A stretch of DNA of 64,000 nucleotides from Ginglymostoma cirratum (taxonomy: Eukaryota). The stretch is from positions 33,209,164 to 33,273,163 of the forward strand of contig JAHRHZ010000289.1 of NCBI GenBank assembly GCA_024137785.1. The letters run 5' to 3'. The translations under genes and the position numbers were made by a program. Under the pieces are notes generated by a model, which saw only the letters and a program-made list of their open reading frames with translations, was not told where the DNA came from and did not search any database. Positions 10,239 through 61,445 of the stretch are shown here, in pieces; the first letter of the stretch is position 1; the number at the start of each line of letters is the position of its first letter.

Positions 10239-10333
10239 TTCTGAAGAAGGGTCTAGGCCCGAAACGTCAGCTTTCCTGCTCCTCTGATGCTGCTTGGCCT
10301 GCTGTGTTCATCCAGCTCTACACCTTGTTATCA
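10239..10333 (+). mobile_element. 95-bp PLE family-A mini-element (HHR plus tail) with TSD
   Basis: Homologous to 19030-19123; flanked by AACAAAAGTAGACCT (10224-10238) and AACAAAAGCAGAACCT (10334-10349). Confidence 0.85.
10241..10268 (+). ncRNA. Minimal type I hammerhead ribozyme motif
   Basis: CUGAAGA-A-GGGU(CUAG)GCCC-GAAAC-GUC: intact catalytic core, palindromic ACGU in place of helix III, weak helix I. Confidence 0.65.
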
Positions 10334-12689
10334 AACAAAAGCAGAACCTGCTTGGAAATTGATCCATTCAGATTTCACTGTAACCGGCTTAATGATATGC
10401 AACACATCTGTCGGAGCTGTGAAGTAAGTTACTTCAGATAGAATTTTTGCAGGTACACCAAAGCATATAGGCAAGGACAGATATGAGATACTTCATAGCA
10501 CCTTTTATATTATGAGCATGGTGAGACATAGAGTGACAAAGCGGCTGACTGATGAGTAGTTTCACGTTCACATAGGAAGCAAAGTGCAAGTTACGGCATC
10601 CAGATTTAATCTGGTTGTTTATTTCCATTTGTCAACATGAAAAAAGCTTGCAACTGTTTAGTGAAAACCGTAAACATTGTTAATCCTCATTCTAAAAGAA
10701 TTTGACCCAACACAAGGGAAGGAAGAATCTCAGCACATTTGTACTTAGACAAATAAAGAATTGTTGCAGCTCTCTGCAATTTGGATGCAAGCCACCTGGG
10801 ACACTTTGATATTCTTCTTGCTGATACGCCAGCCTGCGACAGGGCTGTGCTCCCATGTAGCAATTGCTGAGGGAAATAGAAAATGCAGCTGTCCCCATGA
10901 AGAATCTTGTACCATTTCAAATCTCCCTAAACCCATAGCAGCACAGAATGAAAACCAAAACAAAGTAAGCTAAGGATGAAAGTAAATGACCGCTGTTTAT
11001 ACCACACAAGGGGCAAATCACAGAATTAAGAACAGATACTCCGCAGGGACCTGGGAATTATGCAAGCATTCCTCACTTCAGGGAAATTAAGGGCAATTTT
11101 GGGCTTATTATCTTTCAGGTTTTTGTTACAGATATACACCTATGTCAAACGTTCAATATGAATTTAAGAGGAATATAATGTCCAAGCTGGTTTTTCATGT
11201 GACTGAAAATAAAAGAATTTTCTTCATCTCAATGAGGTTTTTGCAGCTGGAAGATTATTAAGTATTACATTTCCATCTGCCTGAATTCCTGGGTGGAATT
11301 TCTCTCTTTGAGATGATCTCTATAAGTTGAGAAGAGGGAATTGGGCTTCCCTCTATTTAACACCTTCTTGGCCACACACAACAATTTTGCTTCACAGATA
11401 GCTGTTATACTTCAATTAGAACATAAGTAACAGGACTAAAACAAAGGAGCAGAAACACAAGGGTTCTTTGAGTGAAAGCAGAAGGAATTTTATAACCTAC
11501 AGACGCATCAAAAATAACCCAACATTCTTCACCAACAAACTCAGGTAATATGTTTGAAAGAAGGTGGTAGGGTACCCTCCCCATACAAGAAGGCAAAGGC
11601 AAGAGCAGTTTAAAATTTGTAGAGTTTTTGGGCTGTTGAATTTTAAACCATAGGCCACTTGTTTAATTGTCGACTGATACTCTGCAGCAGTGGTGACTTT
11701 TGTAGGTCTTGAGTTCTCAGTGAATGGTCTTGCCCCACATTGCTTCTTCAGTGAGCACTGACTTTGACATTTAGGGGGAAGGGAGTGAGAAGCTTTTGGA
11801 TTCTTATTATTAACAATTTGTACTCTTTTCTCTCTCTGCTTTGCTGCCCCAAGCAGTTGTGGACAAAAGTCCACTTTAATATCCTGACTCTGCTCCATGC
11901 CCTTACCGACCTGCATATGCCAAAAGTAATCGTTCATCTTCCAAAATGTGAGCTTTTCATGCAAGTGTAAATTAAACAAGATGAACATTTCTTTATGCTG
12001 AATAAATGTCTGGCTTCACTGTTTTTGGATAGAATGGCACTTTCAGTGCAGACTGGATTTCACAAAGCTTACCTTAACTTGTGATCAGCTGATTATCGCA
12101 ACCATTTCAGGTCAGTATTTATTCGTTTTTACAAGTCACTTCATTCCATGAACATCTCAGGTATTAAAAATCAGATGATGAAAGTTCAATCTTAATAATC
12201 CATGCTCTAATTATTACAACAGTGCTGAATTATATTTTAAGAATAAAGTTGGATAGTTTGCCTTCAAGTTGTCAATTCAGTCATTCTGTAGCCTACTCTG
12301 TACACATTTATTTTGCCAATATTATCCTTCATAAACAAAAACAAGGGTGTGCTCACAAAAAGAAAGATTAACAACTTGGCAAGTCTACCCAATTAATGGC
12401 ATGTTCTTTTGTTGACTGCTCTAAATCAGACAAGAGGTAGAAATATTTCAACTTATATTCAATGAGGTGGGAGGAAAGAAATTGATTTCTAATCTTGATT
12501 AAACATGACTACTTGCATCTTTTTTCTTCCCTTGCTAATTGTCTTTTTGATCTGAATTAATTAACACATTGTTGTCTTTCACTTGATTTTGCACCTGTCC
12601 TTTTACATTTGAATTCCCTTTTTGCTATTTTGGATTAATCACATATTTTTAGCTGTTTATTTATTCTTTCATGGTATATGAGCATTTGG

Positions 12690-15530: not shown

Positions 15531-15582
15531 AATATACATTGCAAAATAAGCATGAATTGAATAACTTCCTAATCTACTTCAT

Positions 15583-16560: not shown

Positions 16561-17660
16561 ATCTCTCACTGAATCATGGTCTTTAGATTAGAGACACTAT
16601 TAGCTCAAGTCTTTACAAAGTGAAAATGGAGATGTCTGGAAAAAGCAAGATCAAACAGCCAGGAATAACCTCCACAGCAAGACAACCTCCTGCAAATCAC
16701 TGTCAGATTTACACACAGTGAATGGATAGTTAGGTGATATAGGAAGCATGCCTAGGTAAACTGCTTCTAAGCGGAGTTTACACACATGTGAAATAAAGAG
16801 ATAATTGAAAAGTAAGGTGAAATTCTCCAGAAAAGGAGCATGCAAAATTACCCTAGTGAAGACTTACTACTCATATTCATTCTCTAAACCTACAACTCAC
16901 ATGAATTAAAAAAAAAAGAACCAAAAACACGAAACACTTGAAATCTGTTTAGATTTTAGTCATGGTTATTAACCTCCGCAGGATCTACTGAAGGAAAGGT
17001 GATAAAGTTCTATCTCCAAAGGTTTATAAGGATCAAAAGTAATTTAGTTCTTGCAGTCCTAGCTTATTAGGTGGAATTAAAAAAAAATTCATATCTGGAG
17101 CTTGATACGTCAGTTTTAATTTTGAAATCTCCTGGGATTGCATACCGAGAGAATGAACATGTTGTACTGCTGAAACACCAAGAAACCATAATCTGGGCTT
17201 TGTTGGGCAGTGTGGGGTTTGGGGCCCCAGAGGAATGACCAAGGGGAAAGAGAAACAAAGTGGAATTGTGTACATGACAGTATGTTGTACCAAATTCATT
17301 TGGAAGCAGTTGTAAAGAATGATTGAAGCATCTCCTGATCGTCAAAGAACATGCCAAAAGGAGCAATTATGGATCATTAATTTCTTGCCCACAAATTCCT
17401 TCAATTTGCACCAGATGGACACAATTGCATTTTCAGGTGCATTCAATTGGTCCCAGTACTTTAAAGAGTTTATACAGTGAGTAATGCACCTGAATCCAAA
17501 TATGACTATGTCTTCAACTTAATTCTGATTTATGGAATAGGTTCAAAAAGAAAAGAGGTAGAATAGAGGAAAATAAAAGTCAAGTATGGTGGATGTTGTA
17601 AATATGAAGCATGGGGCTGGATGAACACAGCAGGTCAATCAGCATCATAGGAGCAGGAAA

Positions 17661-17696
17661 ACTTGACGTTTCGGGCCTAAACCCTTCATCAGAAAT
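17661..17696 (-). ncRNA. Minimal hammerhead ribozyme motif
   Basis: The reverse complement is AUUU-CUGAUGA-A-GGGU(UUAG)GCCC-GAAAC-GUC/AAGU, identical to 19028-19063. Confidence 0.75.
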
Positions 17697-18289
17697 GGGG
17701 GAGGGGAAGAGGGTTCTGAAATAAATAGGGAGAGAGGGGGAGGCGGATAGAGGATGGATAGAGGAGAGGATAGGTGGAGAGGAGGCAGACAAGTTGAAGA
17801 GGTGGGGATGGAGCCAGTAAAGGTGAGTGTCGGTGGGGGCGTAGGGAGGAGATAGGTCAGTCCAGGGAGGACGGACAGGTCAAGGGGGCGGGATGATGTT
17901 AGTAGATTGGAGATGGGGGTGTGGCTTGAGGTGAGAGGAAAAACAGGTTAGGGAGGTGGAGGTGAGCTGGGCTGCTTTTGGGATGCGGTTGGGGGAGGGG
18001 AGATTTTGAAGCTTGTGAAATCCACATTGATGCCATTCGGCTGCAGGGTTCCCAGGCTGAATATGATTTGCTGTTCCTTCAGCCTTCGGGTGGCATCACT
18101 GTGGCATTGGAGGAGGCCCAGGATGGACATGTCATCTGAGGAATGGGAGGGAGAGTTGAAATGGTTCGCGACTGGGAGGTGCAGTTGTTTGTTGCGAACT
18201 GAGCGCAGGTGTTCTGCAAAGCGGTCCCCAAGCCTCCGCTTGGTTTCCCCGATGTAGAGGAAGCCACAACGGGTACAGCCACTCCCCTC

Positions 18290-18776
18290 CAGCCCCACCA
18301 CACCCAGCACTTTTCCTTGTAACCGCAGGAAGTGCTACACCTGCCCCCACACCTCCTCCCTCACCCCAATCCCAGGCCCCAAGAAGACTTTCCACATCAG
18401 GCAGATGTTCACCTGCACATCTGCCAATGTGGTATACTGCATCCGCTGTACCCGTTGTGGCTTCCTCTACATCGGGGAAACCAAGCGGAGGCTTGGGGAC
18501 CGCTTTGCAGAACACCTGTGCTCAGTTCGCAACAAACAACTGCACCTCCCAGTCGCAAACCATTTCAACTCTCCCTCCCATTCCTCAGATGACATGTCCA
18601 TCCTGGGCCTCCTGCAATGCCACAGTGATGCCACCCGAAGGCTGCAGGAACAGCAAATCATATTCAGCCTGGGAACACTGCAGCCCAATGGCATCAATGT
18701 GGATTTCACAAGCTTCAAAATCTCCCCTCCCCCAACCGCATCCCAAAACCAGCCTAGCTCATCTCCACCTCCCTAA
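18290..18776 (+). CDS. PLE GIY-YIG endonuclease domain (5'-truncated ORF fragment)
   Basis: CNRRKCYTC zinc-finger linker, then FTCTSANVVYCIRCTRCGFLYIGETKRRLGDRFAEHL..PVANHF..RRLQEQ..LGTLQPNGIN. An inverted partial copy lies at 17948-18279. Confidence 0.9.
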
Positions 18777-19027
18777 CCTGTTTTCCCTCTCACCCCAAGC
18801 CCCACCCCCATCTCCTATCTCCTAACATCATCCCGCCCCCTTGACCTGTCCGTCCTCCCTGGACTGACCTATCTCCTCCCTACCCCCCTACCTACACTCA
18901 CTTTTACTGGCTCCATCCCCGCCTCTTCGACTTGCCTGCCTCCTCTCCACCTATCCTCTCCTCTATCCATCCTCTATCCGCCTCCCCTTCTCTCCCTATT
19001 TATTTCAGAACCCTCTTCCCCTCCCCC

Positions 19028-19063
19028 ATTTCTGATGAAGGGTTTAGGCCCGAAACGTCAAGT
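19028..19063 (+). ncRNA. Minimal hammerhead ribozyme motif
   Basis: Helix I AUUU/AAGU, core CUGAUGA (19032-38), an extra A, helix II GGGU/GCCC, then GAAAC-GUC with predicted cleavage after C19059. The palindromic ACGU implies dimer-type folding, as described for PLE minimal HHRs. Confidence 0.75.
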
Positions 19064-19164
19064 TTTCCTGCTCCTATGATGCTGCTTGACCTGCTGTGTT
19101 CATCCAGCCCCATGCTTGTTATCTCGGATTCTCCAGCATCTGCATTACCTTTTATTTCTAACCC

Positions 19165-19270
19165 TTGTAAATATGAAATTGCTCGCAAAACTCAGCAGGT
19201 CTGGTAGTATCTGAGAAGACAGAAACAAAGTTAATGCTTGCAGTCCAAAATAACACAGCTTCAGAGCAAT
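19165..19270 (-). mobile_element. Older PLE family-C tail, split by the family-A insertion (other half at ~17575-17608)
   Basis: AAATTGCT..AAACTCAGCAGGTCTGG..ATCTG..GAAACAAAGTTAA matches family-C tails at 53430 and 61330. The left piece AAAAGTCAAGTATGGTGGATGTTGTAAATATGAA matches their terminal part. Confidence 0.7.
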
Positions 19271-19297
19271 TTTGAACAAGTCTCATATCAGACTTAA

Positions 19298-19612: not shown

Positions 19613-20704
19613 AGATAACGAAGACAGATATATGATGCAATATACAGTCATGAATTGTTTCTGACAATACAAGCTCTTGTTGGTGAATCTTTTTACTTCT
19701 GAATTATCCAATGACTTGCATTAATGTTGGAGTTAGTCCTCTTCCATATATAATGCATGCCTTCAAATATTCTTATAACCAAATAAGATCCAGCCTTTAA
19801 AATGGGCATGAGATGTTTTGCAGTATAGTACATACATTTTATACAGCAATTAATGCCTACGGAATTGTCTAGTCATAAATTAAAATTTGTAAGTATGTTA
19901 CAATTGAGAATTGGATGTGTTTACATTAAACCAATGCTTTTCTAGAGATTTTTTTCAGCTTTCTTGTACATAACATCTTTAAATTTAGAATGTCAGAACA
20001 TGTTTGATTTTAGTCCTAGCTTCAGTGGCCAACTTGTATATGATGATCAGTGCATATCACAGCAGACCATATCTCGGGTATCTGAGATCACTGTTGATTA
20101 GTGAATTCTCACTAAGCATTGTTTTTTTTCCTACTGGATATCAAAAATATTCAGCACAATATTCAGATTTGAGCATAGATTGTCGAACTCAATTTCACCT
20201 TGTACTGTCAAGGAGGTACTTAAATATTAGTTTACACTGAACCAATGATGTATTCAAAACTCAGAAACTGAGGTGTTTAGGAGTAGTGTCTAATTAGCAA
20301 AATAATTCTGCAACTTAATTAACCTAATTGTTTAATTATTAACATGTTGCCTTACTGCTGACTGGACATTTCCTGTTTGGAGTATTCTGCTATTCTCATT
20401 TTTAATTCTTTATTCCTTCATGACATGTTACACTCAGTAACCACCCACCACCACATTATCACTATAATTATCCAAATGAGAGTTGGAATTCACTCCAAGA
20501 ATTTTCTCATTTTCCATTGCTCTATACATCACACATTAAAACCCTTCACCCGGTATTAAGAATCCCAATCATTGGCCCACTGCTGAAAAACCTGGCAAGG
20601 CAAAAATAGCAAATGAGAAAGTGATGGGATAGTGACACTAAACTTGGGTTTCAGTGCCAATGTGCATCCTTGCAAAGAAAGAAGAAAACAGATTGTAGTT
20701 CCAT

Positions 20705-20888
20705 AGATAGTAGGAACTGCCGATGCTGGAGAATCTGAGATAACAAGGTATAGAGCTGGCTGAACACAGCAGGCCAAGCAGCATCAGAGGAGCAGGAAAG
20801 CTGACGTTTCGGGTCTGGAGCCTTCTTCAGAAATGGGGGAGGGGAAGGCGATTCTGAAATAAATAGGGAGAGAGGGGGAGGCGGATAC
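20705..20888 (-). mobile_element. PLE family-A 3' end with HHR motif and TSD
   Basis: The minus strand gives CUGAAGA-A-GGCUCCAGACCC-GAAAC-GUC (20803-20830) plus a full tail; AGTTCCAT is duplicated at 20697-20704 and 20889-20896. Confidence 0.88.
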
Positions 20889-20976
20889 AGTTCCATGATG
20901 CTGCCTCTCAAAAGTAGTACAGAGAGAGAAGATAGTACAGAGACTTTGGACTTGCTTTTTAACTCTCTGCTAGAGA

Positions 20977-23614: not shown

Positions 23615-23725
23615 GAGTTAACTCTAAAGAAGAGTCATACCAGACACAAAACATAGCTCTGTTTCTCTCGCCACAGAGGCAGCCAGACCTGCTGAGTTTC
23701 TCCAGCATCTGCAGTTGTTTGTTTT
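23615..23725 (+). mobile_element. PLE family-C tail with decayed HHR
   Basis: CTAAAGAAGAGTC..GACACAAAACAT (decayed CUGAAGA..GAAAC), then CTCTGTTTCTCTC..CCAGACCTGCTGAGTTTCTCCAGCATCTGCAG. Confidence 0.7.
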
Positions 23726-25429: not shown

Positions 25430-26690
25430 GAGGGCACGGTGGTAACGGGAAGAAATGGAATGACAGCAAGATAAAGCCCTGGTCAGACCACACCTAGAAT
25501 GCTTTATACAGTCCTAAACAGCACACCTTACAAGATAATACTGAGCTTGCACAGCAGATTCACCAGGTTCTATGGGTTAGATTATGAGAAGACATTACAT
25601 AAGCCAGAAGGTAAAGCTTGAAAATGAACATAATGGGTGTACTGGAGTTCCATTTTTAAGGGTATGAGGCAAGTCAGACCAGTATATNNNNNNNNNNNNN
25701 NNNNNNNNNNNNNNNNNNNNNNNNNNNNNNNNNNNNNNNNNNNNNNNNNNNNNNNNNNNNNNNNNNNNNNNNNNNNNNNNNNNNNNNNNNNNNNNNNNNN
25801 NNNNNNNNNNNNNNNNNNNNNNNNNNNNNNNNNNNNNNNNNNNNNNNNNNNNNNNNNNNNNNNNNNNNNNNNNNNNNNNNNNNNNNNNNNNNNNNNNNNN
25901 NNNNNNNNNNNNNNNNNNNNNNNNNNNNNNNNNNNNNNNNNNNNNNNNNNNNNNNNNNNNNNNNNNNNNNNNNNNNNNNNNNNNNNNNNNNNNNNNNNNN
26001 NNNNNNNNNNNNNNNNNNNNNNNNNNNNNNNNNNNNNNNNNNNNNNNNNNNNNNNNNNNNNNNNNNNNNNNNNNNNNNNNNNNNNNNTGATGCTGCTTGG
26101 CCTGCTGTGTTCATCCAGCTCTACACCTTGTTATCTCAGTATATATCATCCGCAAGTTTTAATGACTTTTCTCTCTATGAAAACAGGTTTGTATTTCTTG
26201 GAAGATGTAAGATCATGGACTGATTTTTGAATTTTTTTAAAAAAGGTCCTTTTTCACTCATGGAACGTAGGCATTGCTAACTAGGTCAGCATTTTATTGG
26301 CTGACCTTAGCTATCCTTGAGAAGGTGGCAGTGATTTGATTGAGGTGTTCAGAATTTTACAAGAAACCTACTGTACAAATAAAAGAAACATTTTCTCCTG
26401 ATGAGAAGGTCTGGGACAATCGGAAATAATCTTGATATCAGAGTCAGACCTTTTAGGAGGAAAGTTAGGAAATACTTTCTCACGAAAAAATATGGTAGAA
26501 TTGTGAAACCCTCTCCCACCAAAATCAATTGATATTAATTCAATTTATAACAGTAACCTACAATCAATTGATATTTTCTAGTCAAGACCATTACAGGATT
26601 CGGAGCTGAAGTGGTTGGATATAGACCAACCATGAACTCATTGACTAGCAGAGCAAGCTCAAAGGCTGACTGGCTGATTCCTGTTTTGGT
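25430..26690 (+). mobile_element. Old CR1 3' fragments flanking gap 1
   Basis: ALVRPHLE (25477-25500), RFTR, LIEVFRIL and RKYFL motifs, and a CR1-like 3' UTR at 26600-26690. Interrupted by the gap, a PLE tail and an antisense LINE tail at 26255-26333. Confidence 0.6.
25688..26087. other. Assembly gap (400 N)
   Basis: Run of exactly 400 N; the right edge is a family-A PLE tail (26088-26136). Confidence 0.99.
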
Positions 26691-27049
26691 GTTGCTATGA
26701 ATTTATGCGAAATCACACTTCAAGGCAATCTTAAGCAAGAAACATTGGTGTTCTTCAGGCTTATCCTTAGGTCCTATGTGCAACCTAAACTCAAATACTT
26801 CAGGGAAGCTCAGGTCTATCATTACTTTATCAAATACCACAAAAAGCATTATAAATTGCAACTTGAGAATGAATCTGCTGGGTTAGTGTTAACTTTTTGC
26901 ACCTCAGCTCAAAAGTAATGACCCACATTTGTTTACTGTTGCATATTAAACCTTTACATACTGCCTATGTTATCTCTGCAAGCCTAGCCAGAAAGATCTA
27001 CAAAGTGGATTGGGGGATGGGAGAGAAGGCTGCTACCAATTAGCTTCAA

Positions 27050-27281
27050 CACAGTATGGAGCTGGAGGAACACAGCAGGCCAGGCAGCATCAGAGGAGCA
27101 GGAAAGTTGACATTTCAGATCAGGACCCTTCTTCAGAAACCATTTCTTCAAAATTTCTGAAGAAGAGTCCCGATCCAAAATGTCAACTTGCCTGCCCCTC
27201 TGATGCTGCCTGGTCTGCTGTGTTCCTCCAGCTCCATATTGTGTTGTCTCTGACTCCAGCATCTGCAGTTCTTGCTATCTC
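27050..27281. mobile_element. PLE family-A hairpin mini-element with two opposite-strand decayed HHRs
   Basis: Arms ~27050-27138 (-) and 27154-27243 (+), with the tail only on the right. Each arm ends at TTTCTGAAGA. Degenerate TSD ACCAATTAGCTTCAA (27035-49) / ACTAACTCGCCTCAA (27282-96). Confidence 0.85.
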
Positions 27282-30831: not shown

Positions 30832-32068
30832 CAATAAGACCATAAGACCATAAGACATAGGAGTGGAAGTAAGGCCATTCGGCCCATCGAGTCCACTCCA
30901 CCATTTAATCATGGCTGATGGGCATTTCAACTCCACTTACCTGCACTCTCCCCGTAGCCCTTGATTCCTTGCAAGATCAAGAATTTATCAATCTCTGCCT
31001 TGAAGACATTCAACGTCCCGGCCTCCACTGCGCTCCGTGGCAATGAATTCCACAGGCCCACCACTCTCTGGCTGAAGAAATGTCTCCTCATTTCCGTTCT
31101 AAATTGACCCCCTCTAATTCTAAGGCTGTGCCCACTGGTCCTAGTCTCCCCACCTAACGGAAACAACTTCCCAGCGTCCACCCTTTCTAAGCCATGCATT
31201 ATCTTGTAAGTTTCTATTAGATCTCCCCTCAACCTTCTAAACTCTAATGAATACAATCCCAGGATCCTCAACCGTTCATCGTATGTTAGGCCTACCATTC
31301 CAGGAATCATCCGTGTGAATCTCCGCTGGACACGCTCCAGTGCCAGTATGTCCTTCCTGAGGTGTGGGGCCCAAAATTGGACACAGTATTCTAAATGGGG
31401 CCTAACTAGAGCTTTATAAAGTCTCAGAAGCACATCGCTGCTTTTATATTCCAACCTTCTTGAGATAAATGACAACATTCCATTCACTTTCTTAATCATG
31501 GACTCAACCTGCAAGTTAACCTTTAGAGAATCCTGGACTAGCACTCCCAGATCCCTTTGTACTTCGGCTTTATGAATTTTCTCACCTTTCTGAAAACAGT
31601 CCATGCCTGTATTCTTTTCTCCAAAGTGCAAGACCTCGCATTTGCTCACGTTGAATTTCATCAGCCATTTCCTGGACCACTCTCCTAAACTGTCTAAATC
31701 ATTCTGCAGCCTCCCCACCTCCTCAGTACTACCTGCCTGTCCACCCAACTTTGTATCATCGGCAAACTTCGCCAGAATGCCCCCAGTCCCTTCATCCAGA
31801 TCATTAATATATAAAGTGAACAGCTGCGGCCCCAACACTGAACCCTGCAGGATACCACTTGTCGCCAGTTGCCATTCCAAAAAAGAGCCTTTTATCCCAA
31901 CTCTCTGCCTTCTGTCAGACAGCCAATCCTCAATCCATGCCAGTAACTCACCTTGAACACCATGGGCCCTCACCTTACTCAGCAGCCTCCCGTGAGGCAC
32001 CTTATCAAAGGCCTTTTGGAAGTCTAGATAGATAACATCCACTGAATTTCCCTGGTCTAACCTACTTG
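30832..32068 (-). mobile_element. Young 5'-truncated CR1 LINE
   Basis: Uninterrupted RT C-terminal ORF, 3' UTR and (TCTTATGG)n tandem tail; near-identical to 56591-57598. Confidence 0.97.
30927..32068 (-). CDS. CR1 ORF2 reverse transcriptase fragment (open frame, lacks N-terminus)
   Basis: YLDFQKAFDKVPH, LQGSVLGPQLFTLYINDL, KFADDTKLGG, LVRPHLEYCVQFWAP and RRLRGDLIETYKI. The listed start codon comes from flanking DNA. Confidence 0.85.
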
Positions 32069-34178: not shown

Positions 34179-34317
34179 GAGATATAAGGAACTGCATATG
34201 CTGGAGAATCCGAGATAACAAGGTGTAGAGCTGGATGAACACAGCAGGCCAAGCAGCATCATAGGAGCAGGAAAGCTTTCCTGATCCTATGATGCTGCTT
34301 GGCCTGCTGTGTTCATT
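34179..34317. mobile_element. PLE family-A zero-spacer palindromic mini-element
   Basis: 41-bp arms 34235-34275 and 34276-34316 (one mismatch) centred on AAAG|CTTT, with the tailed arm on the left. TSD AAGCCGCACATGCATTA (34162-78) / AAGCTGTATATGCATAA (34318-34). Confidence 0.88.
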
Positions 34318-34384
34318 AAGCTGTATATGCATAATGCCTTTCATGACTTTCACTCATCTAAAATAATAAAAAGAATTTTTAAAA

Positions 34385-41100: not shown

Positions 41101-42485
41101 CTCAAGGTGAGAATCCTTGAAATAGTTATCTGTGACAGAACACCAGTGGAAATCGGAGAGAATGGAAGTTGTCTGGTTGAATCAAAGCAGCAAATTCTAG
41201 GGGAAATGTCAGTTTTCCACAGTTGAGTTAAAGACAGGTGAACGAGACCGGTAACTGTTTCTGTGGATTAAAGCAAAAAAAATTAAAGGGCAAGTAGGGA
41301 GACTGTGTAGAAGATTAATCTTGTTGCTATCATCTGAACAGCAGGATGTGTTAACCTTTGATCTTATAGTTTAAAGGACAAACGGGAGCAGGATGAAAGA
41401 GGTTCATTGTTCTGTAGCTCAAAAGCCAAAAGACTAATCCCGACTGGGAGAATTTAGCTTCTGTGTTCAGTTTATTGTATGAGTCCATACTAAGTTAAAA
41501 GAGGTCAACTTCTAGGTGTCGATTTCCATTGATGGGTCATGCATGATGTTATTTCACCTGTTCATCAACTACCAGTCTGACATGCATATCCTTACAAGTC
41601 TGAGACATTGTGAAATATTCTCATGTTGAGAATTTCATAATCTTAAAGCTTTGGAAGTGTTACTACTTATTCCAATCAAGACTGAATCCTCAAATGTTAA
41701 CATTTCATATTGTGAAAGATTATATTGGATTGCTGAGAATTGCACAAACAAGCTACCTATGATATAAAGTTTAATTTTTTAAAATATTAATTAATTTTTT
41801 ATTTTAAATTAATTTTTAAAAATACATTATTTCACCAGCTAAATTAGATTGAAACAAAACAGAAAATACATAGTTTAGAAAGCCAGAGCACATCCATAAT
41901 TCTCAATATTGATCATCATGCCTGTTGTCTCCAATTTCCACTGACTTTCTGTCACCGATAACGAATTTGAAGATTCTTACTTTGAAGACCATAAGACCAT
42001 AAGTTATAAGAAGCATTCAATCCATCAAGTCTGCTCCACATTCAATTCAATCACGACTGATGTGTTAATCCTGAACTCCACTTTCTTGCCTTTTCCCCAC
42101 AATCCTTGACTCCCTTACTGATCAAAAATCTATCTCCCTCAGCCTTAAGTGTACTGAGCCACTCAGCTTATACAGCCCTCTGTGGTAAAGAAGTTCACAA
42201 ATTCACTACCCTCCAAGAAAAGAAATTTATCTTATTCTCGGTTTTAGGTGGGTGACCCCTTATTCTGAGATTATGCTTTCTGGACCTAGGCACTCCCATA
42301 TGGGAAACAACCTTTCTGCATCCAACTTACAAAGTCCCCTATGATCTTGTATGTTTCAATAAGGTCACATTTCATTCTTCTATATTTCAATGGATACAGG
42401 TTAAGCCTTCTAAACCTCTTCTCAAATAACAGTCCCTCTTGACTGGGTATTAATTTCATGAGCCTTCTTTGAACTGCTTCTAATA

Positions 42486-42781
42486 ATTCTGGGATTTGCA
42501 TTTTAATCAATTAAAACCTGCATTTTCTTTCTAACTGATTAAAAATTTAACAGGAGGGAACTGGCCAGTCATTTTAGGTTTATTCATACATTAGCATCAG
42601 TTGTATGATCTTTTGATCTTTTACTTAGAAATTCTGTGTCTTGGTGCCTCTTTCACTACACCTGATGAAGGAGCAATGCTTCAAAAGCTAGTGTTTTCAA
42701 ATAAACCTGTTGGACTATAACCTGGTGTCCTGTGATTTTTGACCTTGTCCAACCCAGTTCAACACCGGCACCTCCACATCA
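42486..42781 (+). mobile_element. PLE family-B 3' region with decayed HHR, inserted in the CR1
   Basis: ACAC-CUGAUGA-A-GGAGC(AAU)GCUUC-aAAA-GC-UA/GUGU at 42658-42694 (G12 mutated). TSD TGCTTCTAATA (42475-85) / TGCCTCTAATA (42782-92). Confidence 0.8.
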
Positions 42782-43179: not shown

Positions 43180-44605
43180 GACAACACCTCCTTTACCATA
43201 ATCCTCAACACAAATGCCCCTCAAAGGTTAAGTACTCAGGCCCCGACAATACTCCGAACACGCTCGCAACTGTGTGGCCAAATTCTGTCCAGACTCTATT
43301 GACATGTTTGCTCACGACACTACCATTGTAGGTTGGATCTCAAGCAACAATGTGACAGAGTACAGGGACATAGTGTTTAGCAGCATGGCTTGTCTGTCTG
43401 TCCTCTGCATGCTGTAATGCTTCAGTGAATCACACCGCAAACTGGAGAAGCAACATCTCATCTTCAGACTAGCCACTCTACAACCTTCTGGGATCAATAT
43501 GGAGTTCAATACCTTTAGACTGGGAAACCACTCTCATTCCTTCTCTTTCTTTCAGCTTTAACTGTTACATTTTCTGTCACCATGTCCTCTCTCCCCTCCA
43601 GTGGGGCTGTCCGTTCTTTCTAGTCAATTGGACATTGTTCTGCCATTCTCACATGCCAACCACTTAATCTACACTAACAACATCCTTTCTCCCCCAGCAC
43701 TCCACTCGCCACTCCCCCACTTCCCCACTATTGCAAAAATGCTGCTCCCTCCACACTTCACATTAGCTCTGATAAAAAGTCACCTAGACTTGAAACATTA
43801 GCTTGCTTTCGGTCCATGGGAGCTGCCTGACCCACTGTGATTTCCAGCATTTTTTGTTTTCAATCTCTCCATCATGTCAGCAAAATGAAGGAGCTGGTCA
43901 TTGACTTCAGGAAGGGGAGCGGAGGGCACGCCCCTATCTGTATCAATGATGCTGAGGTGGAGAAAGCATCAAGTTCCTGGGAATGACGATCACCAACAAT
44001 CTGTAATGGGCCACCCATGTCAACGCAATTGTCAAGAGAGCACATCAATGTCTCTACTTCCTCAGAAGGCTAAGGAAATTCGGCATATCCACAAGGACTC
44101 TTACCAATTTTTGGTATCAGCATAGAAAGCATCCTATCTGGATGCGTCACAGTGTGATATGGCAACTTCTCTTTCCAAGACTGCAAGAAACTATAGACAG
44201 TCGTGAACACAGCTCAGTGCATCACGCAAAACAGCCTTCCATCCATTGACTTCATCTACACTTCCCACTGTCTCGGGAAAGCAACCAACATAATCAAAGA
44301 CCTGTCCCACCCTGGTTATACTATCTTCCACCTTCTTCCATCAGGCAGAAGATATAAAAGTTTGAATACACATACGAATAGATTCAAGAACAGCTTCGTC
44401 CCCGCTGTTATCAGGCTTTTGAACATACCTCTCAAATGTTAATTCTGATTTCTCTCTCTGCACTTTCACTGTGGCTGTAACACTGTATTCTGCACTCTGT
44501 TCTGCTACCCTGATGCACTTTGTATGGTATAATCTGCCTGTATAACATGCAAAACAACGTTTTTCACTGTCTTTCTCTCCATGTGACAACAATGAATGAA
44601 TTAAT
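43180..44605 (+). mobile_element. Rex1/Babar-like LINE fragment nested in the CR1
   Basis: FAHDTTIVG.IS.N..TEYR, VSKMKELVIDFRK, KFLG, LYFLRRLRKFG, IESILSGC.T..YG and LLPSGRRYKSL..TNRFKNSF.PA.IRLLN. Confidence 0.85.
43389..43860 (+). mobile_element. PLE fragment (GIY-YIG C-terminus, 3' UTR, decayed HHR) nested in the Rex1
   Basis: LSVLCML*CFSESHRKLEKQHLIFRLATLQPSGINMEFN is homologous to 18600-18715. CTGATAAAAAGTC..GACTTGAAACATT at 43769-43799. Confidence 0.85.
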
Positions 44606-49289: not shown

Positions 49290-49804
49290 CAGAGATAAAA
49301 GGTACTGCAGATGCTGGAGAATCCGAGATAACAAGCATGGGGCTGGATGAACACAGCAGGTCAAGCAGCATCATAGGAGCAGGAAAACTTGCTCCTATGA
49401 TGCNNNNNNNNNNNNNNNNNNNNNNNNNNNNNNNNNNNNNNNNNNNNNNNNNNNNNNNNNNNNNNNNNNNNNNNNNNNNNNNNNNNNNNNNNNNNNNNNN
49501 NNNNNNNNNNNNNNNNNNNNNNNNNNNNNNNNNNNNNNNNNNNNNNNNNNNNNNNNNNNNNNNNNNNNNNNNNNNNNNNNNNNNNNNNNNNNNNNNNNNN
49601 NNNNNNNNNNNNNNNNNNNNNNNNNNNNNNNNNNNNNNNNNNNNNNNNNNNNNNNNNNNNNNNNNNNNNNNNNNNNNNNNNNNNNNNNNNNNNNNNNNNN
49701 NNNNNNNNNNNNNNNNNNNNNNNNNNNNNNNNNNNNNNNNNNNNNNNNNNNNNNNNNNNNNNNNNNNNNNNNNNNNNNNNNNNNNNNNNNNNNNNNNNNN
49801 NNNG
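49290..49804. mobile_element. PLE family-A hairpin element spanning gap 2
   Basis: Tailed minus arm 49290-49390, then the inverted arm GCTCCTATGATGC running into the Ns. TSD TTAAACAAATGAACT (49275-89) / TTAAACAAATTAACT (49805-19). Confidence 0.8.
49404..49803. other. Assembly gap (400 N)
   Basis: Run of exactly 400 N. Confidence 0.99.
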
Positions 49805-53429: not shown

Positions 53430-53633
53430 GAAAAGAATCGTGGATGCTGGAAGTCAGAAACAAAAACTCAAATTGCTGGAAAGAGGCAGCGGGTATGGCA
53501 GCATCTGTGGAGAGAAATCAGAGTTAACATTTCAGATCCAGTGACACCTCTTCAGAACAGTTAACTCTAATTTCTCTCCACAGGTGCTGCCAGACCTGCT
53601 AACTTTTTCCAGCAATTTCTGATTTTGTTTCTG
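53430..53633. mobile_element. PLE family-C hairpin mini-element
   Basis: The tailed minus arm 53430-53558 runs through a decayed HHR (minus strand GTTCTGAAGAGGTGTCACTGGATCTGAAATGTTAAC). The plus arm 53560-53633 starts at GTTAACTC. Confidence 0.8.
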
Positions 53634-54680
53634 ATACAAATTTAGCAGCCTTCTACCAGATTAATAAAACCAATCCAGGAACTAACAATTAGCTTAAAAG
53701 ATAATAAATAATTACAGGACACTTAACAAGGATGATGGACAGCCATGTGAAGGTAAACAAGTCAAGGTGCAAAGCTTCATTTTTGCATGTCAAGTGGGCA
53801 GCAGCTAGGAATGTTTCAACTCAACAGAAAGGACAGGAAGAAGAGGCAAAGTCCCACATGACAGCTGAGGGGAAAGCAAGCTTCTGAGGCAGGGATGAGT
53901 TAGTGGTGATGTGAGGAACAGGCAGCGGAGGGAAAACAGTACTCGCAGAATGACATTGAATGCTAATCAACGGGAGTCTGTGATCAAGAGTCGAAGCACA
54001 AAACCAAGGAAGTTAACCTGAAAGAAAGCTCCCTCCACTTATCCAAACTGGAACTGGCCGGTATCAATAGGTTTAGCTTTTCTGGCCTCATTTTGATTGC
54101 AGTACCCTCAGATAGAATTACTCCAGGTTTACTGCCTGACCAATAAAAGAGCATTCCCAAATTCCAAAGGTGTGAGAGAAGATTTTCTCCAGCAATGCTT
54201 AAAGTTTTCCTTCAGAAGAAACAAACACTTGGGTTTTTGAAATCTTTTTGAATTGGGTCCAAACCCAAACTCTGAGAAAAAAAGTTTACAATCACCTTCT
54301 ACTCAGGCAAAACAGCTTGACTATTTGATGTTGTTTCGACTGCCTTATCATTAAACGAAGCCAATGACTAACTATGGAGAAACATCTCATCTTTACCTTG
54401 AATACCTAAAAATGACCATTGCACCTGTAAGAGATTTTACAATGTTTACCAGACATGAAGCTTGTGAAACTAATGTGAATTGCACCACATTATAATCTGT
54501 GGCTCGGACGCTCGGCAACTGAGTCAAAAACTTTTTGGCTCAAATCTCACGTCAGAGATTTGTGGTGGAAAAAATCACAACTGATACTCCAGTTCATTAC
54601 CAATTAAATGCTGCACTATCAGATTTGATGGTTTTTGAAGAGACCTTAAACCAAGGACCTCATCTGTGGAGAAAGACAGA

Positions 54681-54888
54681 AGTCACAAGACACCAGGTTA
54701 TAGTCCAACAGGTTTATTTGAAATCACCAAGCTTTTGGAGTGCTGCTCCTTCACCAGGTGAAGTCACCGGATGAAGGAGCAATGCTCTAAAAGCGTGATA
54801 ATTTCAAATAAGCCTGTTGGACTATAACCTGCTGTTGTGTGATTTCTGACTTTGTCCACCTCAGTCCAGTACTAACACCACCACATCA
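54681..54888. mobile_element. PLE family-B hairpin mini-element inserted into a family-C hairpin
   Basis: Arms ~54681-54761 (-) and 54764-54851 (+) meet at the HHR 5' ends (CCTTCACCAGGTGA-AG-TCACCGGATGAAGG), with the tail on the right. Duplicated target TGTGGAGAAAGA(AA)CAGA at 54665 and 54889. Confidence 0.85.
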
Positions 54889-55020
54889 TGTGGAGAAAGA
54901 AACAGAGTTAACATTGTGAGTCCATTATCTCTTCTTCAGAACTGTTCAGTTAAATATGTTTCTCTCTCCATAGATGCTGCCAGGCCTGATGAGTTTTTCC
55001 AGCACTTTCTGTTGTTATTA
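54889..55020. mobile_element. PLE family-C hairpin remnant (host of the family-B element)
   Basis: Minus arm through a decayed HHR (..TCTTCTTCAGAAC), then the plus arm GTTAAATATGTTTCTCTCTCCATAGATGCTGCCAG; same layout as 53430-53633. Confidence 0.75.
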
Positions 55021-55207: not shown

Positions 55208-55335
55208 GACCATAAGAAATAGGAACAGAAATAAGCTATTCAGCCTTTCCAGCCTCCTCTGTCAACCAACAGGATCATGGCTGAACGAACACTCCTCATG
55301 TCCACATTCCGCCATTTTCCTTGTTATCCTGTATG
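55208..55335 (-). mobile_element. CR1 3' UTR fragment
   Basis: GACCATAAGAAATAGGAACAGAA.TAAGC.ATTCAGCC..GATCATGGCTGA. Confidence 0.75.
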
Positions 55336-56329: not shown

Positions 56330-58020
56330 GCATTTGCTTTGACCCAGAGATAAATTTCTGACCCCATGTTTTCCACCACCTTCACCCATCTGCTGCTGAA
56401 ACCCTCATCCATGCTTCTGTCACCTCTAGCTTTGGCTACGCATAAGATCACCCACCTCTACTCCCACAATTTCCTTTCCCTCTCCTGAATAAACTTCATC
56501 TCATCCAAAGCTCTGCTTCCAGTAGCCTAAATCATATATTGTCCTGTCCGCCAAACTCTTGCTTTCTGTCCGGCAACACCTTGATTTTAAATCCCGCTGG
56601 GTTCAGTGTTGGGGCCGCAGCTGTTCACCTTATATATTAATGATCTGGATGAAGGGACTGGGGGCATTCTGGCGAAGTTTGCCGATGATACAAAGTTGGG
56701 TGGACAGGCAGGTAGTACGGAGGAGGTGGGGAGGCTGCAGAATGATTTAGACAGTTTAGGAGAGTGGTCCAGGAAATGGCTGATGAAATTCAACGTGAGC
56801 AAATGCGAGGTCTTGCACTTTGGAAAAAAGAATACAGGCATAGACTATTTTCTGAACGGTGAGAAAATTCATAAAGCCGAAGTACAAAGGGATCTGAGAG
56901 TGCTAGTACACGATTCTCTAAAGGTTAACTTGCAGGTTGAATCCGTGATTAAGAAAGCGAATGGAATGTTGTCATTTATCTCAAGAGGGGTTGGAATATA
57001 AAAGCAGTGACGTGCTTCTGAGACTTTATAAAGCTCTAGTTAGGTCCCATTTAGAATACTGTGTCCAATTTTGGGCCCCACACCTCAGGAAGGACATACT
57101 GGCACTGGAGCGTGTCGAGCGGAGATTCACACGGATGATTCCTGGAATGGTAGGCCTAACATACGATGAACGGTTGAGGATCCTGGGATTGTATTCATTA
57201 GAGTTTAGAAGGTTGAGGGGAGATCTGATAGAAACTTACAAGATAATGCATGGCTTAGAAAGGGTGGACGCTGGGAAGTTGTTTCCGTTAGGTGGGGAGA
57301 CTAGGACCCGTGGGCACAGCCTTAGAATTAGAGGGGGTCAATTTAGAACGGAAATGAGGAGACATTTCTTCAGCCAGAGAGTGGTGGGCCTGTGGAATTC
57401 ATTGCCACAGAGCGCAGTGGAGGCCGGGACGTTGAATGTCTTCAAGGCAGAGATTGATAAATTCTTGATCTCGCAAGGAATCAAGGGCTATGGGGAGAGT
57501 GCGGGTAAGTGGAATTGAAATGCCCATCAGCCATGATTAAATGGTGGAGTGGACTGGATGGGCCGAATGGCCTTACTTCCACTCCTATGTCTTATGATCT
57601 TAAAATTCTTATTAATGCTTTCAAATGTATCCATGTCATCACACCACCAGACACTGGTACATCACCCTACAATCCCCCATCTGTTCTGTAACCTCTTTCA
57701 GCCTGACAACCTCTTTCAAGAACTCTGTGCCCCTCCATTTCTGATCTCTTATGCATCATTCAACTTAATTGGTTCACAATTGACACTCTGCTTTCAGTTG
57801 CTTAAGACTAAGCTTTGGAATTCCTGTCTTAAAGTTCTATGCTGCTTCACCTCTCTTCCTTCAGTGCCTTAAAACTTACCTCTTTGACCAAGCATTGGGT
57901 TAGCTGTCTGAATATCTCCTTGCAGGGCTCGGTCTCAGACCATGTTTGATAACACTCCTGTGAAGTGCTTTGAGATACTTTACTGTGTTAAAGACACTAT
58001 ATAAATTCAATTTTTTTTCT
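56330..58020 (+). mobile_element. L2 LINE 3' part, interrupted by a young CR1
   Basis: SAAETLIHASVTSSF.Y, KL.LIQSSA and DFK|ILI..FK..H motifs continue across the CR1; L2 tail CCTGTGAAGTGCTTTGAGA..GTTAAAG.C.CTATATAAAT at 57957-58005. Confidence 0.8.
56591..57598 (+). mobile_element. Young 5'-truncated CR1 LINE with TSD
   Basis: ORFs 56606-57001 and 56961-57518 (one frameshift near 56988) are near-identical to the 30927 ORF. TSD TGATTTTAAA (56582-91) / TGATCTTAAA (57595-604). Confidence 0.97.
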
Positions 58021-59429: not shown

Positions 59430-59990
59430 TGAGTTCAAACGTAGGGATGTTGTATTGTAATTATACTTGGGCCTTGGTGAGTTCACGCCTGGAATATTGC
59501 ATGCAGTTTTGGTCTCCATATCTGAGAAAGAATACACTTGCTATAGACAGAGTGTGGAGGTTCACGAGGCTAATATCAGCAATGACAGGTCAATTGGGAC
59601 ACACTGGGTTGACTGAGCCTGTTTTCACTGGAGCTGAGAAGAATGAAAGAATCTGATTGAAAAGTATAAAATTTTAACAGGACTGGACAGACTAGATGCA
59701 GAGACGATATTTTCCCTGGTCAGGGAATCTAGAACCAGAGGGCATGGTGTCAGGACATCGGGTATACCATTTAAGACTGAGATGAGGAAACATTTTTCAT
59801 TCAAAGGATAGTACATTAGTGGAATTCTCTATCACAGAATGTTGTGGAGACCAAACCACTGAACGCATGAAAGAAATAAACTGATAATGTTTTAAACATT
59901 AAAGGCATCAAGAGAGAAAGCAGAAAACTGGCATTCAGATAGAGCATCAGTTATGATCATATTAAAATCTCTTGGTTCCTATGTTTCTAA
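59430..59990 (+). mobile_element. CR1 3' fragment
   Basis: ALVSSRLEYCMQFWSPYLRK, LIEKYKILTGLDRLD, SRTRGH and FKTEMRKHF motifs. Confidence 0.88.
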
Positions 59991-60024
59991 CATTATTGCT
60001 GCAAATCTAAACAAGAAAATTGGA

Positions 60025-60600
60025 ATTTCAGGGCAGAGAGAGGGTTACACATTCACAGATGTGCATTGGAAATTTCAGTAGTGGAGGAAGACGGGAGGAG
60101 AGATAAAGTGGTTCTATAGGTAGCTTGGAGGTATTCAAGGAACACGCTCAGACATGAGGGGGGTAAGTGGTCGGAAAGGGCAACTTCCAATATCTGATCT
60201 AACGACCTTAGAGCACTGCTGTAAGATGACCATTAACATCATGGAGATAGTCAAGGTCGATCGTGGTATCTTCCCATGTTGTTCAGCATAATACTCTCAG
60301 ATCACTCTCTCACCGAAGCTCTCTCTGGAACACAAAACTGAAACCTCACAGGCAGGAGTTACCCCATGTCACTCTCACATGCATTCCAATGTTTGGAGCA
60401 TTACACTCAGATTCCACCGTTGCACCCAGCTCTATTCATTCAGCTGTGGTAGACACACCACCCAAACATACTGCAACAGTTTTACAACAGTGGATTAAGG
60501 CCCCAAAATACCATTGACGTAGTTATTTTTAACTCCCAAACATCTATTTTTTTCAAATAAAAAAGAAAATGCCTGCTACAGCCAGGAATGTCTGCAGAAG
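60025..60600 (+). mobile_element. Second Harbinger Myb/SANT-type relic
   Basis: Frameshifted RERVT/FTDV/ALEISVVEEDGRRD (cf. RERAPRFSD.ALE.LV.EV..RR) and SNDLR, followed by a pyrimidine/CA-rich intron-like stretch as at 9180-9410. Confidence 0.45.
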
Positions 60601-61329
60601 TAGATTCAGTTGGAGTCCAGCAAGTGTCCTGTGTGAGACCCATGGAATGTCACATCTGTAGAGTGTCAGGGTAAGTTCAAATCAAGTGAGAAAGCCAGCA
60701 GGAAGATATAATGATAGGGGTGATTATCTCCCATTTCTCAGCAAAAAGTCACATCTTGCAGGATTATTGTGTTTTGGTCTTCCAGAAATGTACAAAAACA
60801 GGGTTAAAAACTGACAGCAAAGCTAGTCTGTGTGTGTTACTGGCCTGACATCCTGGTGTGAGCACAATTGTCCCATAAATGTCACAGCTCTGATAACAGA
60901 TCATTTAAACACCCGTACCCTTCAGATAAAGCAAAGGGAAAAGGCTTTCTCTCACTGCGCATGCTACCAGAAGACCGCTGTAGAAAGGAATCAGGACAAA
61001 ATTGCTTCAATCCACCAACAAAGCCAAGAATCTAAAAATCAACATTACAATTATCAAAGGCAACACTGCTGATAACCTCCAGTGCAACAGGGCAAAACAT
61101 TCAACAATATGATGTTCACTAACAATTTAGAGACCAATTCTTTTTAAATTGTTCTTGTCTTTCTGGACTCATCTCTTAGTTCTAATCTATGTGTAAGTAG
61201 CTGTATTTCTATTCACTTTTAATAGTAATTTATCAACTCACTCTTTTAGTTACTTAAAGGAAGCATGGTTAAATTGGCAGCTCAAAAAAAAAGAAATTGG
61301 TCATTTGGTTCTGGGACAAAGGCATCAAA

Positions 61330-61445
61330 GAACAGAAGAAGGGTCATTGGACCCAAAACATTAACTCTGATTTCTCTCCACACATGTTGCCAGACCTGCT
61401 GAGCTTTGCCGGCAATTTCTGTTTCTATTTCTAATTTTCACGTTT
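61330..61445 (+). mobile_element. PLE family-C tail beginning at a decayed HHR
   Basis: CAGAAGA-A-GGGTC(ATTG)GACCC-AAAAC-ATT-AACTC, then the family-C tail. Confidence 0.78.

Follow-up and report, generated by a model that had tools for sequence, protein, structure and literature searches.

The window analysed here, a 64-kb stretch of the nurse shark (Ginglymostoma cirratum) genome, contains short insertions of three families (A, B and C) of endonuclease-bearing Penelope-like elements (EN+ PLEs). These insertions occur as solo arms or as head-to-head hairpins, and an arm either carries the 3' tail or lacks it. All nine elements named in the initial annotation were found at, or within a few bases of, where it had placed them, and its division into three PLE families was borne out. 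The features are listed below, with positions in an arm numbered from C3 of the hammerhead ribozyme (HHR), taken as +1; TSD denotes a target site duplication.

10238..10333, plus strand: family A solo arm, tail-less, –2 to about +94; exact 8-bp TSD, copies at 10224-10231 and 10334-10341
17596..17608: left TSD (13 bp, exact) of the 1.55-kb family A fold-back
17609..18279, minus strand: inverted tail-less arm of the fold-back, about +86 to –586; HHR at 17664-17692
18280..19164, plus strand: forward tail arm of the fold-back, about –751 to +128; HHR core at 19032-19060
18258-18773: GIY-YIG endonuclease frame with an upstream Cys cluster, in the forward arm of the fold-back
19165..19177: right TSD (13 bp, exact) of the fold-back
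20704..20889, minus strand: tail-bearing family A solo arm with its 5' end at –58 and an 8-bp TSD; absent from the initial annotation
27047..27139, minus strand: family A hairpin (27050), tail-less arm ending at –2
27153..27280, plus strand: tail arm of the same hairpin, from –2; weak TSD (12 bp, three mismatches)
34179..34278, minus strand: family A hairpin (34179), tail arm ending near +29 within a natural 6-bp palindrome
34273..34326, plus strand: tail-less arm of the same hairpin; TSD of 15 bp with three mismatches (34162, 34318)
49291..49803: whole family A hairpin (49290); its minus-strand tail arm (49291-49391) ends at +28/29 and is followed by the first part of the right arm and a 400-N assembly gap
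49275 and 49805: TSD of the same hairpin, 15 bp with one mismatch, spanning the N gap
53432..53559, minus strand: family B hairpin (53430), tail arm ending at the 5' wall (see below)
53560..53636, plus strand: tail-less arm of the same hairpin, from about +28; no convincing TSD
54677..54888: family C hairpin (54681), tail-less arm (minus) and tail arm (plus); exact 12-bp TSD, 54665-54676 and 54889-54900
54889..55018: older family B hairpin (54889); left arm (minus) ending at –4 and split by the C insertion, right arm (plus) from about +28; no convincing TSD
61334..61454, plus strand: family B solo arm with tail (61330), 5' end at about +2; no convincing TSD

The family C hairpin sits inside the older family B element. 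Most of the insertions had been described as flanked by TSDs of 8–17 bp, and this was credible for five of the nine (17609, 54681, 49290, 10239 and 34179), whereas the TSD of 27050 was weak and none was convincing for the other three. The restriction of the tail to one arm was seen in 17609, 27050, 34179, 53430 and 54681 and, genome-wide, in 52 of 52 TSD-flanked hairpins, each with one tail arm and one tail-less arm; it could not be read in 49290 (gap) and 54889 (C insertion).

Family A encodes a PLE's reverse transcriptase (RT) as well as its GIY-YIG endonuclease; the GIY-YIG match (23.3 bits) exceeded the Pfam cut-off of 22.6, and the RVT_1 match (E = 7e-5) fell under its cut-off. For families B and C, tblastn placed the HHR downstream of related GIY-YIG endonuclease frames, which provide their link to PLEs. 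Families A and B are related to each other and therefore are not independent cases. Translations of all three families contained a CxxxxCxxC-type Cys cluster upstream of GIY-YIG, the feature corresponding to the Cys-rich linker between RT and endonuclease of Neptune-clade PLEs; judged by this motif as described in the available parts of two studies (PMC8557442, PMC3846280), the families would belong to that clade. In family A copies, the pseudo-LTR (pLTR) runs into the 5' end of the ORF, forming a partial tandem pLTR ahead of it. The HHR core (CUGANGA/GAAA) was conserved, with N7 as its sole variable position. Pairing was found in 82–93% of cells for helix I and 80–97% for helix II, with pair types differing among families, and slid controls were all lower (A 24–74%, B 20–65% and C 4–67% paired). 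The predicted fold is the minimal type I hammerhead of PLEs: core, helix II with an extra unpaired base, helix I of 4–5 bp and a palindromic helix III stub. An Rfam search returned no hammerhead match to the hairpins, only sub-threshold matches of the miRNA type.

We then counted ends and junctions in a 742-kb random sample of the genome plus targeted loci. Before counting, we removed 61 of 139 random stretches (all N), arms adjoining N gaps or locus edges, matches falling short of +75 and seven loci that duplicated the window or L061. Head-to-head hairpins of the three families occurred at ~46 per Mb of the random sample, from which we estimated by extrapolation a genome total of 1–2 × 10^5. 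TSDs of 9–17 bp were present in 47 of 85 cases compared with 0 of 255 shuffled ones, an enrichment in keeping with the initial annotation. The 3' ends of arms were bimodal, at about +95 and +128, and tail-less solo arms with a TSD occurred (8 of 28). Target sites displayed no strong consensus beyond one-base microhomology. Gaps of 400 N coincided with many young hairpins.

The 5' ends piled up just upstream of the HHR core, at –6 to –1 in families A (55/143) and B (61/145) and at –9 to –4 in family C; we refer to this boundary as the wall. Among ends lying within –99 to +60, those in –7 to +1 numbered 21 of 63 in family A (P = 1.5e-11) and 31 of 81 in family B (P = 2.5e-18). Simulated uniform truncation yielded a flat distribution without a pile-up, which ruled out an alignment-edge artefact. 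The proposed non-random position of inner ends at the HHR 5' boundary was thus upheld far above chance, although 61330 starts inside the core, and the pattern is common to the three families. Base counts beyond –5 dropped to background in A and B, and short copies had no upstream exon in common. Among arms with –2 as the last templated base, 23 of 30 in family A (P = 1e-4) and 10 of 14 in family B (P = 0.024) continued with a T, corresponding to A on the cDNA. Helix I ends at –3 in every family, yet the wall of family C shifts 3–4 nt upstream, and this shift matches that of an initiator-like A. Initiator-like motifs are short and degenerate, with two to five matches per family within –150 to +60; C1 and C2 fit only the BBCABW form and B fits only YYANWYY.

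No clear cap-derived G was detected at the 5' ends of family A (at –3, G in 4 of 8; at –4, in 5 of 14). Among near-full-length A copies at the 5' pLTR, four pass through the wall (L146, L152, L157 and L162) and would need read-through RNA or a template jump, and one stops there (L159). The raw RNA library with useful depth had equal depth on both strands and no site where many molecules begin; run X24 held only 15 reads, and contig runs are unable to show starts. Raw RNA reads also contained strand-switch joints at the wall. Because a stall at a G-quadruplex or C-tract would be possible, on sequence grounds, in family A only, it was rejected as a shared cause of the wall.

Arms of one hairpin resembled each other beyond family membership. 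Subfamily sites were concordant in 335 of 354 comparisons, compared with 69.5% for other copies, and rare variants were common to both arms in 36 of 172 cases, compared with 1.5%; in family B, shared rare variants were absent (0/58). Arms of TSD-flanked A and B hairpins diverged by 0–17%, as age predicts. Arm lengths were coupled as well: both arms passed the wall in 15 pairs, both stopped at it in 31 and four were mixed, and without loci chosen for long arms the counts were 6, 27 and 4 (P = 3e-4), a table that omits at least four further mixed pairs whose long arm is cut by the locus edge or extends beyond the reference. The tail-less arm was longer by >15 nt in 11 of 50 hairpins and the tail arm in 11, and tail-less arms exceeded their partners by up to about 900 nt (L027, L047). 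Three tail arms (L058, L102 and L278) consist of little beyond the tail and adjoin site 2, the putative RT start site near +95. In family A, both outer ends lie within the same TTATCT-type motif, and most placed junctions display 0–4 nt of microhomology. Hairpins apparently combining two families (L124, L052 and L011) had no TSD and were read as nested insertions.

We interpret these elements as insertion products of the three PLE families in which transcription of the RNA likely starts at the wall and the hairpin likely consists of two cDNAs made at integration, a reading to which we assign a probability of roughly 0.5. Taken on their own, the wall is rather probably the RNA's own 5' end at an initiator-type transcription start site, and twin priming on both target strands is, to a similar degree, a probable origin of the hairpins. 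In LINE-1 twin priming, the second target strand primes an inverted segment from a site that is not fixed, the junction shows microhomology, the TSD is kept and the segments have no overlap, whereas the arms here are both copies of the same 100 nt, started at two fixed sites. In PLEs, the RNA would start at the initiator-like A at –3 (A and B) or –6/–7 (C), and the pLTR would be a roughly 130-nt 5' leader repeated at the RNA 3' end. A dimeric RT-endonuclease would assemble on one copy of this leader repeat and, using both the bottom and the top strand of a staggered target cut, would prime at a pair of internal RT start sites lying at about +128 and +95. On the 5' leader copy, both cDNAs would run off the RNA end after 100–130 nt and gain an untemplated A; on the 3' copy, both would run into the element body. 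The two cDNA ends would be joined by microhomology or templated-insert end joining, and a solo arm would remain where one cDNA survives.

Parts of this scheme have precedents in the available portions of earlier studies. An internal Inr/DPE promoter was described for the Penelope element of D. virilis (PMC2377424), although transcription there starts about 120 nt upstream of the HHR and not beside it (PMC2377424 with PMC4209133), and an Inr-like TCACT was noted in a rotifer pLTR (PMC3846280). For the Anolis Poseidon element PAc, which is predicted to be dimeric, both target strands were cut and extended in vitro, RT started at two internal sites bounding the tail and HHR cleavage was dispensable (PMC11167929). 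The available text of that study reports 3' ends and contains neither the pairing of sites 1 and 2 on opposite strands nor a 5' wall; moreover, the shark ORF starts downstream of the tail, in contrast with an ORF starting in the HHR (PMC11167929). More speculatively, and in our view unlikely, the leader would be repeated in a retrovirus-like manner: RNA would start at the hammerhead, a dimeric telomerase-like RT, acting from both target strands, would copy the leader two times into twin 'strong-stop' cDNAs, and the minimal hammerhead would serve mainly as a site of RNP assembly or RNA dimerisation via its palindromic stub, cutting only two-copy RNAs. Such cutting would account for the short arm beginning at the cut site in three long/short insertions.

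The wall has other possible causes. According to the initial annotation, the ribozyme defines the 5' end of the integrated unit, and inner ends at its cleavage site do occur in the window (34275, 49390 and the right arms of 53430 and 54889), where four arms begin near +28/29. Of about eight short arms with a long partner, three begin at +27, +30 and +31 (L318, L176 and L027), a post hoc observation with small n. However, predicted cleavage would put ends at +29 (A) and +31 (B), whereas the pile-up lies 30–35 nt upstream and retains the entire catalytic core, and two tests in the larger sample revealed no enrichment in the cleavage window (A, 8 against 22 in the 20 nt on its flanks, P = 0.24; B, 6 against 22, P = 0.50). 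Because the predicted site is not enriched, self-cleavage is refuted as the main rule and very unlikely to set the 5' end; in addition, insertion in vitro persists in Anolis when the HHR is mutated, and none of the RNA-seq reads ends at the cut site there (PMC11167929). RT might also skip the folded HHR and so join the strands of helix I directly, which matches the right arms of 53430 and 54889; this was rejected, as it was seen in no more than 3 of 174 B copies and in 0 of 293 A copies, and two further pattern matches looked unrelated. Nearest to the original view is an indirect role of the ribozyme domain, in which 5'–3' exonuclease trimming halts at a folded or protein-bound hammerhead or RT meets a barrier just upstream. 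The HHR fold, or protein bound to it, may indirectly protect the RNA 5' end, the HHR is protein-assisted in vitro according to the available text (PMC11167929), the wall of A and B lies within 1–2 nt of the helix I 5' end, and a cap signature was not seen. We nevertheless doubt this explanation, since helix I has only 4 bp, the wall of family C lies 3–5 nt beyond it, and a barrier acting stochastically at each passage would leave the arms independent under twin priming, yet they are coupled. A 3' splice site, at which copies of spliced RNA would seem to stop, recalls D. virilis Penelope, in which an intron end was mapped to the helix I 5' end (PMC4209133), and family B has CAG at –4 to –2. It is highly improbable here, given that AG is absent from the wall in A and C, that the short copies have no common upstream exon and that the 15 joints listed of 270 in raw RNA reads include no GT..AG skip.

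The hairpins could likewise have arisen otherwise. A self-propagating, non-autonomous MITE-like family, or assembly artefacts, would accord with the high copy number, with the one recurring spacer and with a similar minimal junction in several C hairpins. However, 15 hairpins contained 14 distinct spacers, the repeated one being shared by L278 and L314 of two different subfamilies, and the 27050 junction spacer was found once among the scored candidates of the genome search. Long and short copies have their subfamily variants in common, and no short-copy-specific allele, as a separate SINE-like lineage of solo pLTRs would show, was significant (smallest P = 0.035 among 47 sites), in few copies (A, 59 short and 22 long; B, 58 and 17). 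MITEs are short, palindromic, TSD-flanked and abundant, whereas here neither one fixed structure at many loci nor symmetric TIRs with a fixed-length TSD were found: the ends are asymmetric, the TSDs long and variable (9–17 bp), the centres unique and the copies retro-derived and not mobilised as a unit. Arm divergence and the strand-switch joints in raw reads also speak against such a family or artefacts. The hairpins are made per insertion and are not a MITE family; the MITE-looking class with recurring junctions suggested initially is largely refuted and scarcely credible. A fold-back, in which a single cDNA primed at the tail would fold over at its 3' end and serve as its own template, with later central deletions making the arms unequal, would directly account for the shared variants and the coupled lengths. 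Recurrent junctions with a 3–5 bp stem and a 4–5 nt loop and snap-back-like ones in L068, L223, L130 and L085 point the same way, perfect long palindromes would vanish in assembly gaps and bias our view, and self-priming on an antisense template was already proposed for head-to-head PLE junctions in the available part of one study (PMC3846280). We consider it possible but doubtful: the second strand would always have to stop at a position where RT independently starts in vitro, and it does not account for tail-less solo arms with intact TSDs, for the much longer tail-less arms or for two full-length arms joined via untemplated or templated spacers.

The insertions have much in common with canonical EN+ PLEs. 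Publications already describe inverted pLTRs, solo pLTRs and the tail; in the available parts of the papers (PMC3846280, PMC8557442), such elements have the same RT with a C-terminal GIY-YIG, a minimal-HHR pLTR, a head-to-head inverted 5'-truncated copy, an optional 30–40 nt tail at one end only, a TSD around the whole insert and assembly gaps. By contrast, dominant pLTR-only hairpins, a base-precise wall and coupled arm lengths were not found in those parts; in the literature searched, we found neither arm-length coupling nor the wall, which lies base-precise beside the HHR in three families. Non-LTR retrozymes are likewise related to PLE pLTRs and consist of short, non-coding units with an HHR but are defined as head-to-tail tandem repeats with units of 51–972 bp (bioRxiv 10.64898/2026.07.22.740005), whereas in the window and the sample the units are head-to-head or solo and show no sign of a lineage separate from autonomous copies.

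Such hairpins risk being mis-filed as MITEs or miRNA precursors, as the Rfam matches illustrate; these elements break short-read assemblies and contribute many hairpins to polyA RNA. The hairpins bear on PLE integration, on the cause of inverted copies and tails and on the role of hammerheads, which are called open in the available parts of the papers. If the repeated-leader reading were true, the strong-stop intermediate would have left a fossil record in the 10^5 hairpins. The hairpins tie two RT start sites observed in vitro to both strands of one target cut in vivo, and they predict, for three families, where the RNA begins to within a few bases, which would make the integration mechanism testable.

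All nine elements listed in the initial annotation were found in the sequence of the window; the TSDs claimed for most of them were credible at five, weak at one and absent from three. Three features are needed below.

Features of the window
54681: family C hairpin (two head-to-head arms), within the older family B element at 54889
49290: element interrupted by a 400-N gap, the whole flanked by a 15-bp TSD
18280-19164: long arm, coding for a Cys-cluster linker and a GIY-YIG domain

Further arms of families A, B and C occur at 20704-20889, 23623-23724, 26088-26155, 42483-42780 and 43452-43860, and the 17609 fold-back adjoins an old family B arm at 19175-19246. PLE copies are frequently nested in or adjoin other PLE copies, including those of other families (54659-54900 in the window; L124, L130, L323 and L327 elsewhere in the genome). 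Assembly gaps of 400 N occupy the centres of young PLE hairpins (25688-26087 and 49404-49803; L013-L016, L020, L022, L024), often flanked by a duplicated arm piece. LINE-type reverse transcriptase fragments, which by eye we take to be CR1/L2-like, lie at 6432-7196, 30843-32105 and 56591-57602; two of these stretches, 30843-31853 and 56591-57602, run in opposite directions and share 96-98% identity.

An Rfam search returned no hammerhead match; the motif of families A-C agrees with the minimal type I HHR of PLEs as described in the available text of PMC4209133. Its core is conserved, N7 being the sole variable position, and 80-97% of cells in helices I and II were paired, exceeding slid controls, with pair types varying by family. 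Right arms at 53558, 54947 and L115 can be read as helix I strands joined directly, the core being skipped; such arms were rare (3/174 in family B, 0/293 in family A). A longer family A copy outside the window matched RVT_1 and GIY-YIG, the pLTR of near-full-length copies continues via the tail into the ORF, and the endonuclease frames upstream of families B and C were ~55-60% and ~28-38% identical to that of A. All three families contain a Cys-rich linker, a Neptune-type trait according to PMC3846280 and the available text of PMC8557442, a likeness at the level of motif.

Positions were numbered from the C of the HHR core CUGA (+1, the preceding base being 0); cleavage as predicted would place the 5' end at +29 in family A, +31 in B and +30 in C. 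The source assembly (289 contigs, 4.36 Gb) was sampled as 139 10-kb stretches at fixed positions; 61 consisted entirely of N, and the remainder supplied 741,968 bases. In this random sample, 21/63 family A and 31/81 family B arm ends from -99 to +60 fell between -7 and +1 (p 1.5e-11 and 2.5e-18), compared with 3/63 and 2/81 between +25 and +33; simulated uniform truncations were called flat. In a larger set, which added loci picked by 3' similarity and was aligned more tightly, 55/143 (A) and 61/145 (B) ends lay at -6 to -1, and positions within 2 nt of the cut site showed no enrichment (8 ends in A and 6 in B, each compared with 22 across 20 flanking positions; p 0.24 and 0.50). For family C, 19/65 ends fell at -9 to -4 and none at -19 to -10. 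Accordingly, the 5' breakpoints of all three families are non-uniform and piled beside the HHR 5' boundary, as had been noticed, whereas the proposal that ribozyme cleavage defines the 5' end fails at the unenriched cut site. About one-quarter of arms pass this wall of 5' ends. Because the parent match of short copies in families A and B drops to background beyond -5, these copies have no common upstream exon. A minority role for cleavage is possible, since short tail arms in long/short-arm insertions begin at the predicted cut in three of about eight cases (+27, +30 and +31 in L318, L176 and L027; post hoc), possibly through cleavage of RNAs with two HHRs. In family A, an upstream 6-7 bp inverted repeat (-27 to +4) might base-pair with the first part of the core and compete with the HHR fold, and a few arms stop at -19 to -24.

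The wall is probably an RNA start site at an initiator-like A. In families A and B this A lies at -3 and in C at -6/-7, among only 2-5 such motifs per family within 210 nt, and the wall tracks it across families; the end of helix I is fixed at -3 in all. The main rival is either an RT barrier or exonuclease trimming that ends where the HHR is protected. RT reaching the end of its template can add an untemplated A to the cDNA. Where the last templated base was -2, the next base was T in 23/30 (A) and 10/14 (B) arms, as would be expected of such run-off, although T-run slippage may inflate the A count. The promoter of D. virilis Penelope is internal and includes Inr and DPE (PMC2377424, available text); the start of the element lies ~120 nt ahead of the HHR and its intron ends at helix I (PMC2377424, PMC4209133, available text). 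The raw RNA run of sufficient depth covered both strands equally and showed no start, and no clear cap-derived G occurred at the wall; the start site is therefore what we infer from the copies. Since four near-full-length copies run past the wall at the 5' pLTR and one stops there, this reading would also require either read-through transcripts or template jumping to the 3' repeat.

Among 637 arms, 126 pairs were head-to-head and 17 tail-to-tail, and complete asymmetric hairpins numbered 34 in the random sample, or 46 per Mb. TSD scores of at least 10 were found for 47/85 hairpins vs 0/255 shuffled, and solo arms had TSDs in 28/241 cases vs 0/482 controls, confirming the suspected enrichment; lengths were 9-17 bp, most frequently 12-14. 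Exactly one arm carried the tail in 52/52 TSD-flanked same-family hairpins, as first described. Both outer ends of family A lie within a TTATCT-type motif that is repeated, and most share 0-4 nt of microhomology with the target; the reference used allowed placement of just 13/36 tail-less ends. Strand-switch joints at -7 to +2 occur in raw polyA reads (e.g. -2/-2 with 70 reads and 48 starts) and hairpin arms diverge with age, so the hairpins are not assembly artefacts. In raw RNA reads of L152 (925-1336), position 925 (-4) is joined to ORF positions 1226 on the opposite strand and 1336 in the backward direction, linking wall-terminated arms to the ORF 5' region.

Twin priming is a known integration process of L1; MITE features, the forms of the initiator consensus and inserts of the polymerase-theta type are also established. 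We consider that twin priming would take place on one pLTR repeat and that end joining would then link the products (probability about 0.6). Partner arms agree at subfamily sites (A 335/354, other copies 69.5%; B 100/115, 68%) and share rare variants in A (36/172, 1.5% expected; B 0/58). Their behaviour at the wall is coupled: both pass in 15 pairs, both stop in 31 and 4 are mixed, or 6, 27 and 4 once loci selected for their long arms are set aside (p 3e-4). At least four further mixed pairs were incomplete and are not counted. The arms thus had a common template. The tail arm is the longer in 11 of 50 hairpins and the tail-less arm in another 11, 8/28 solos with TSDs are tail-less, and in vitro a PLE protein, a predicted dimer, cuts and extends both strands, its RT having two start sites that bound the tail and HHR cleavage being dispensable (PMC11167929, available text); these points support twin priming with end joining. 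Fold-back self-priming of tail-primed cDNA with later central deletion, near the proposal of PMC3846280, accounts poorly for either arm being longer and for tail-less solos, and appears unlikely; we retain it because snap-back-like junctions do occur and perfect long palindromes would lie hidden in assembly gaps. Junctions contain A/T runs or short templated repeats. In L019, L022, L127, L176, L211 and L296, inserts reiterate pieces of target or element end several times, resembling iterative templated end joining.

Among 15 junctions there were 14 distinct spacers, and the 27050 junction fully matched only itself, indicating unique junctions. The subfamily alleles of short copies are those of long ones (across 47 sites the smallest p was 0.035, with limited power). 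The initial observation therefore largely stands, whereas its cleavage and MITE-family readings do not: the hairpins look like MITEs but are by-products of each active PLE subfamily. Rfam miRNA precursor models match some below gathering thresholds (54659-54866, 27099-27194, 34235-34317), a mis-annotation risk and perhaps a source of small RNAs.

PLEs are already known to have copies that are inverted and truncated, an optional tail, TSDs, solo pLTRs and palindromic junctions, and in Schistosoma HHR pairs on opposite strands lie 100-700 bp from each other (PMC3846280, PMC11167929, PMC4209133, bioRxiv 10.64898/2026.07.22.740005, PMC8557442 and PMC2377424, in their available text). In the freely accessible literature searched, we found no report for PLEs of twin priming, of a wall of 5' ends or of hairpins made of pLTRs alone and produced in mass. 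The component features are known, and their pattern yields precise, testable predictions on the integration mechanism of PLEs.
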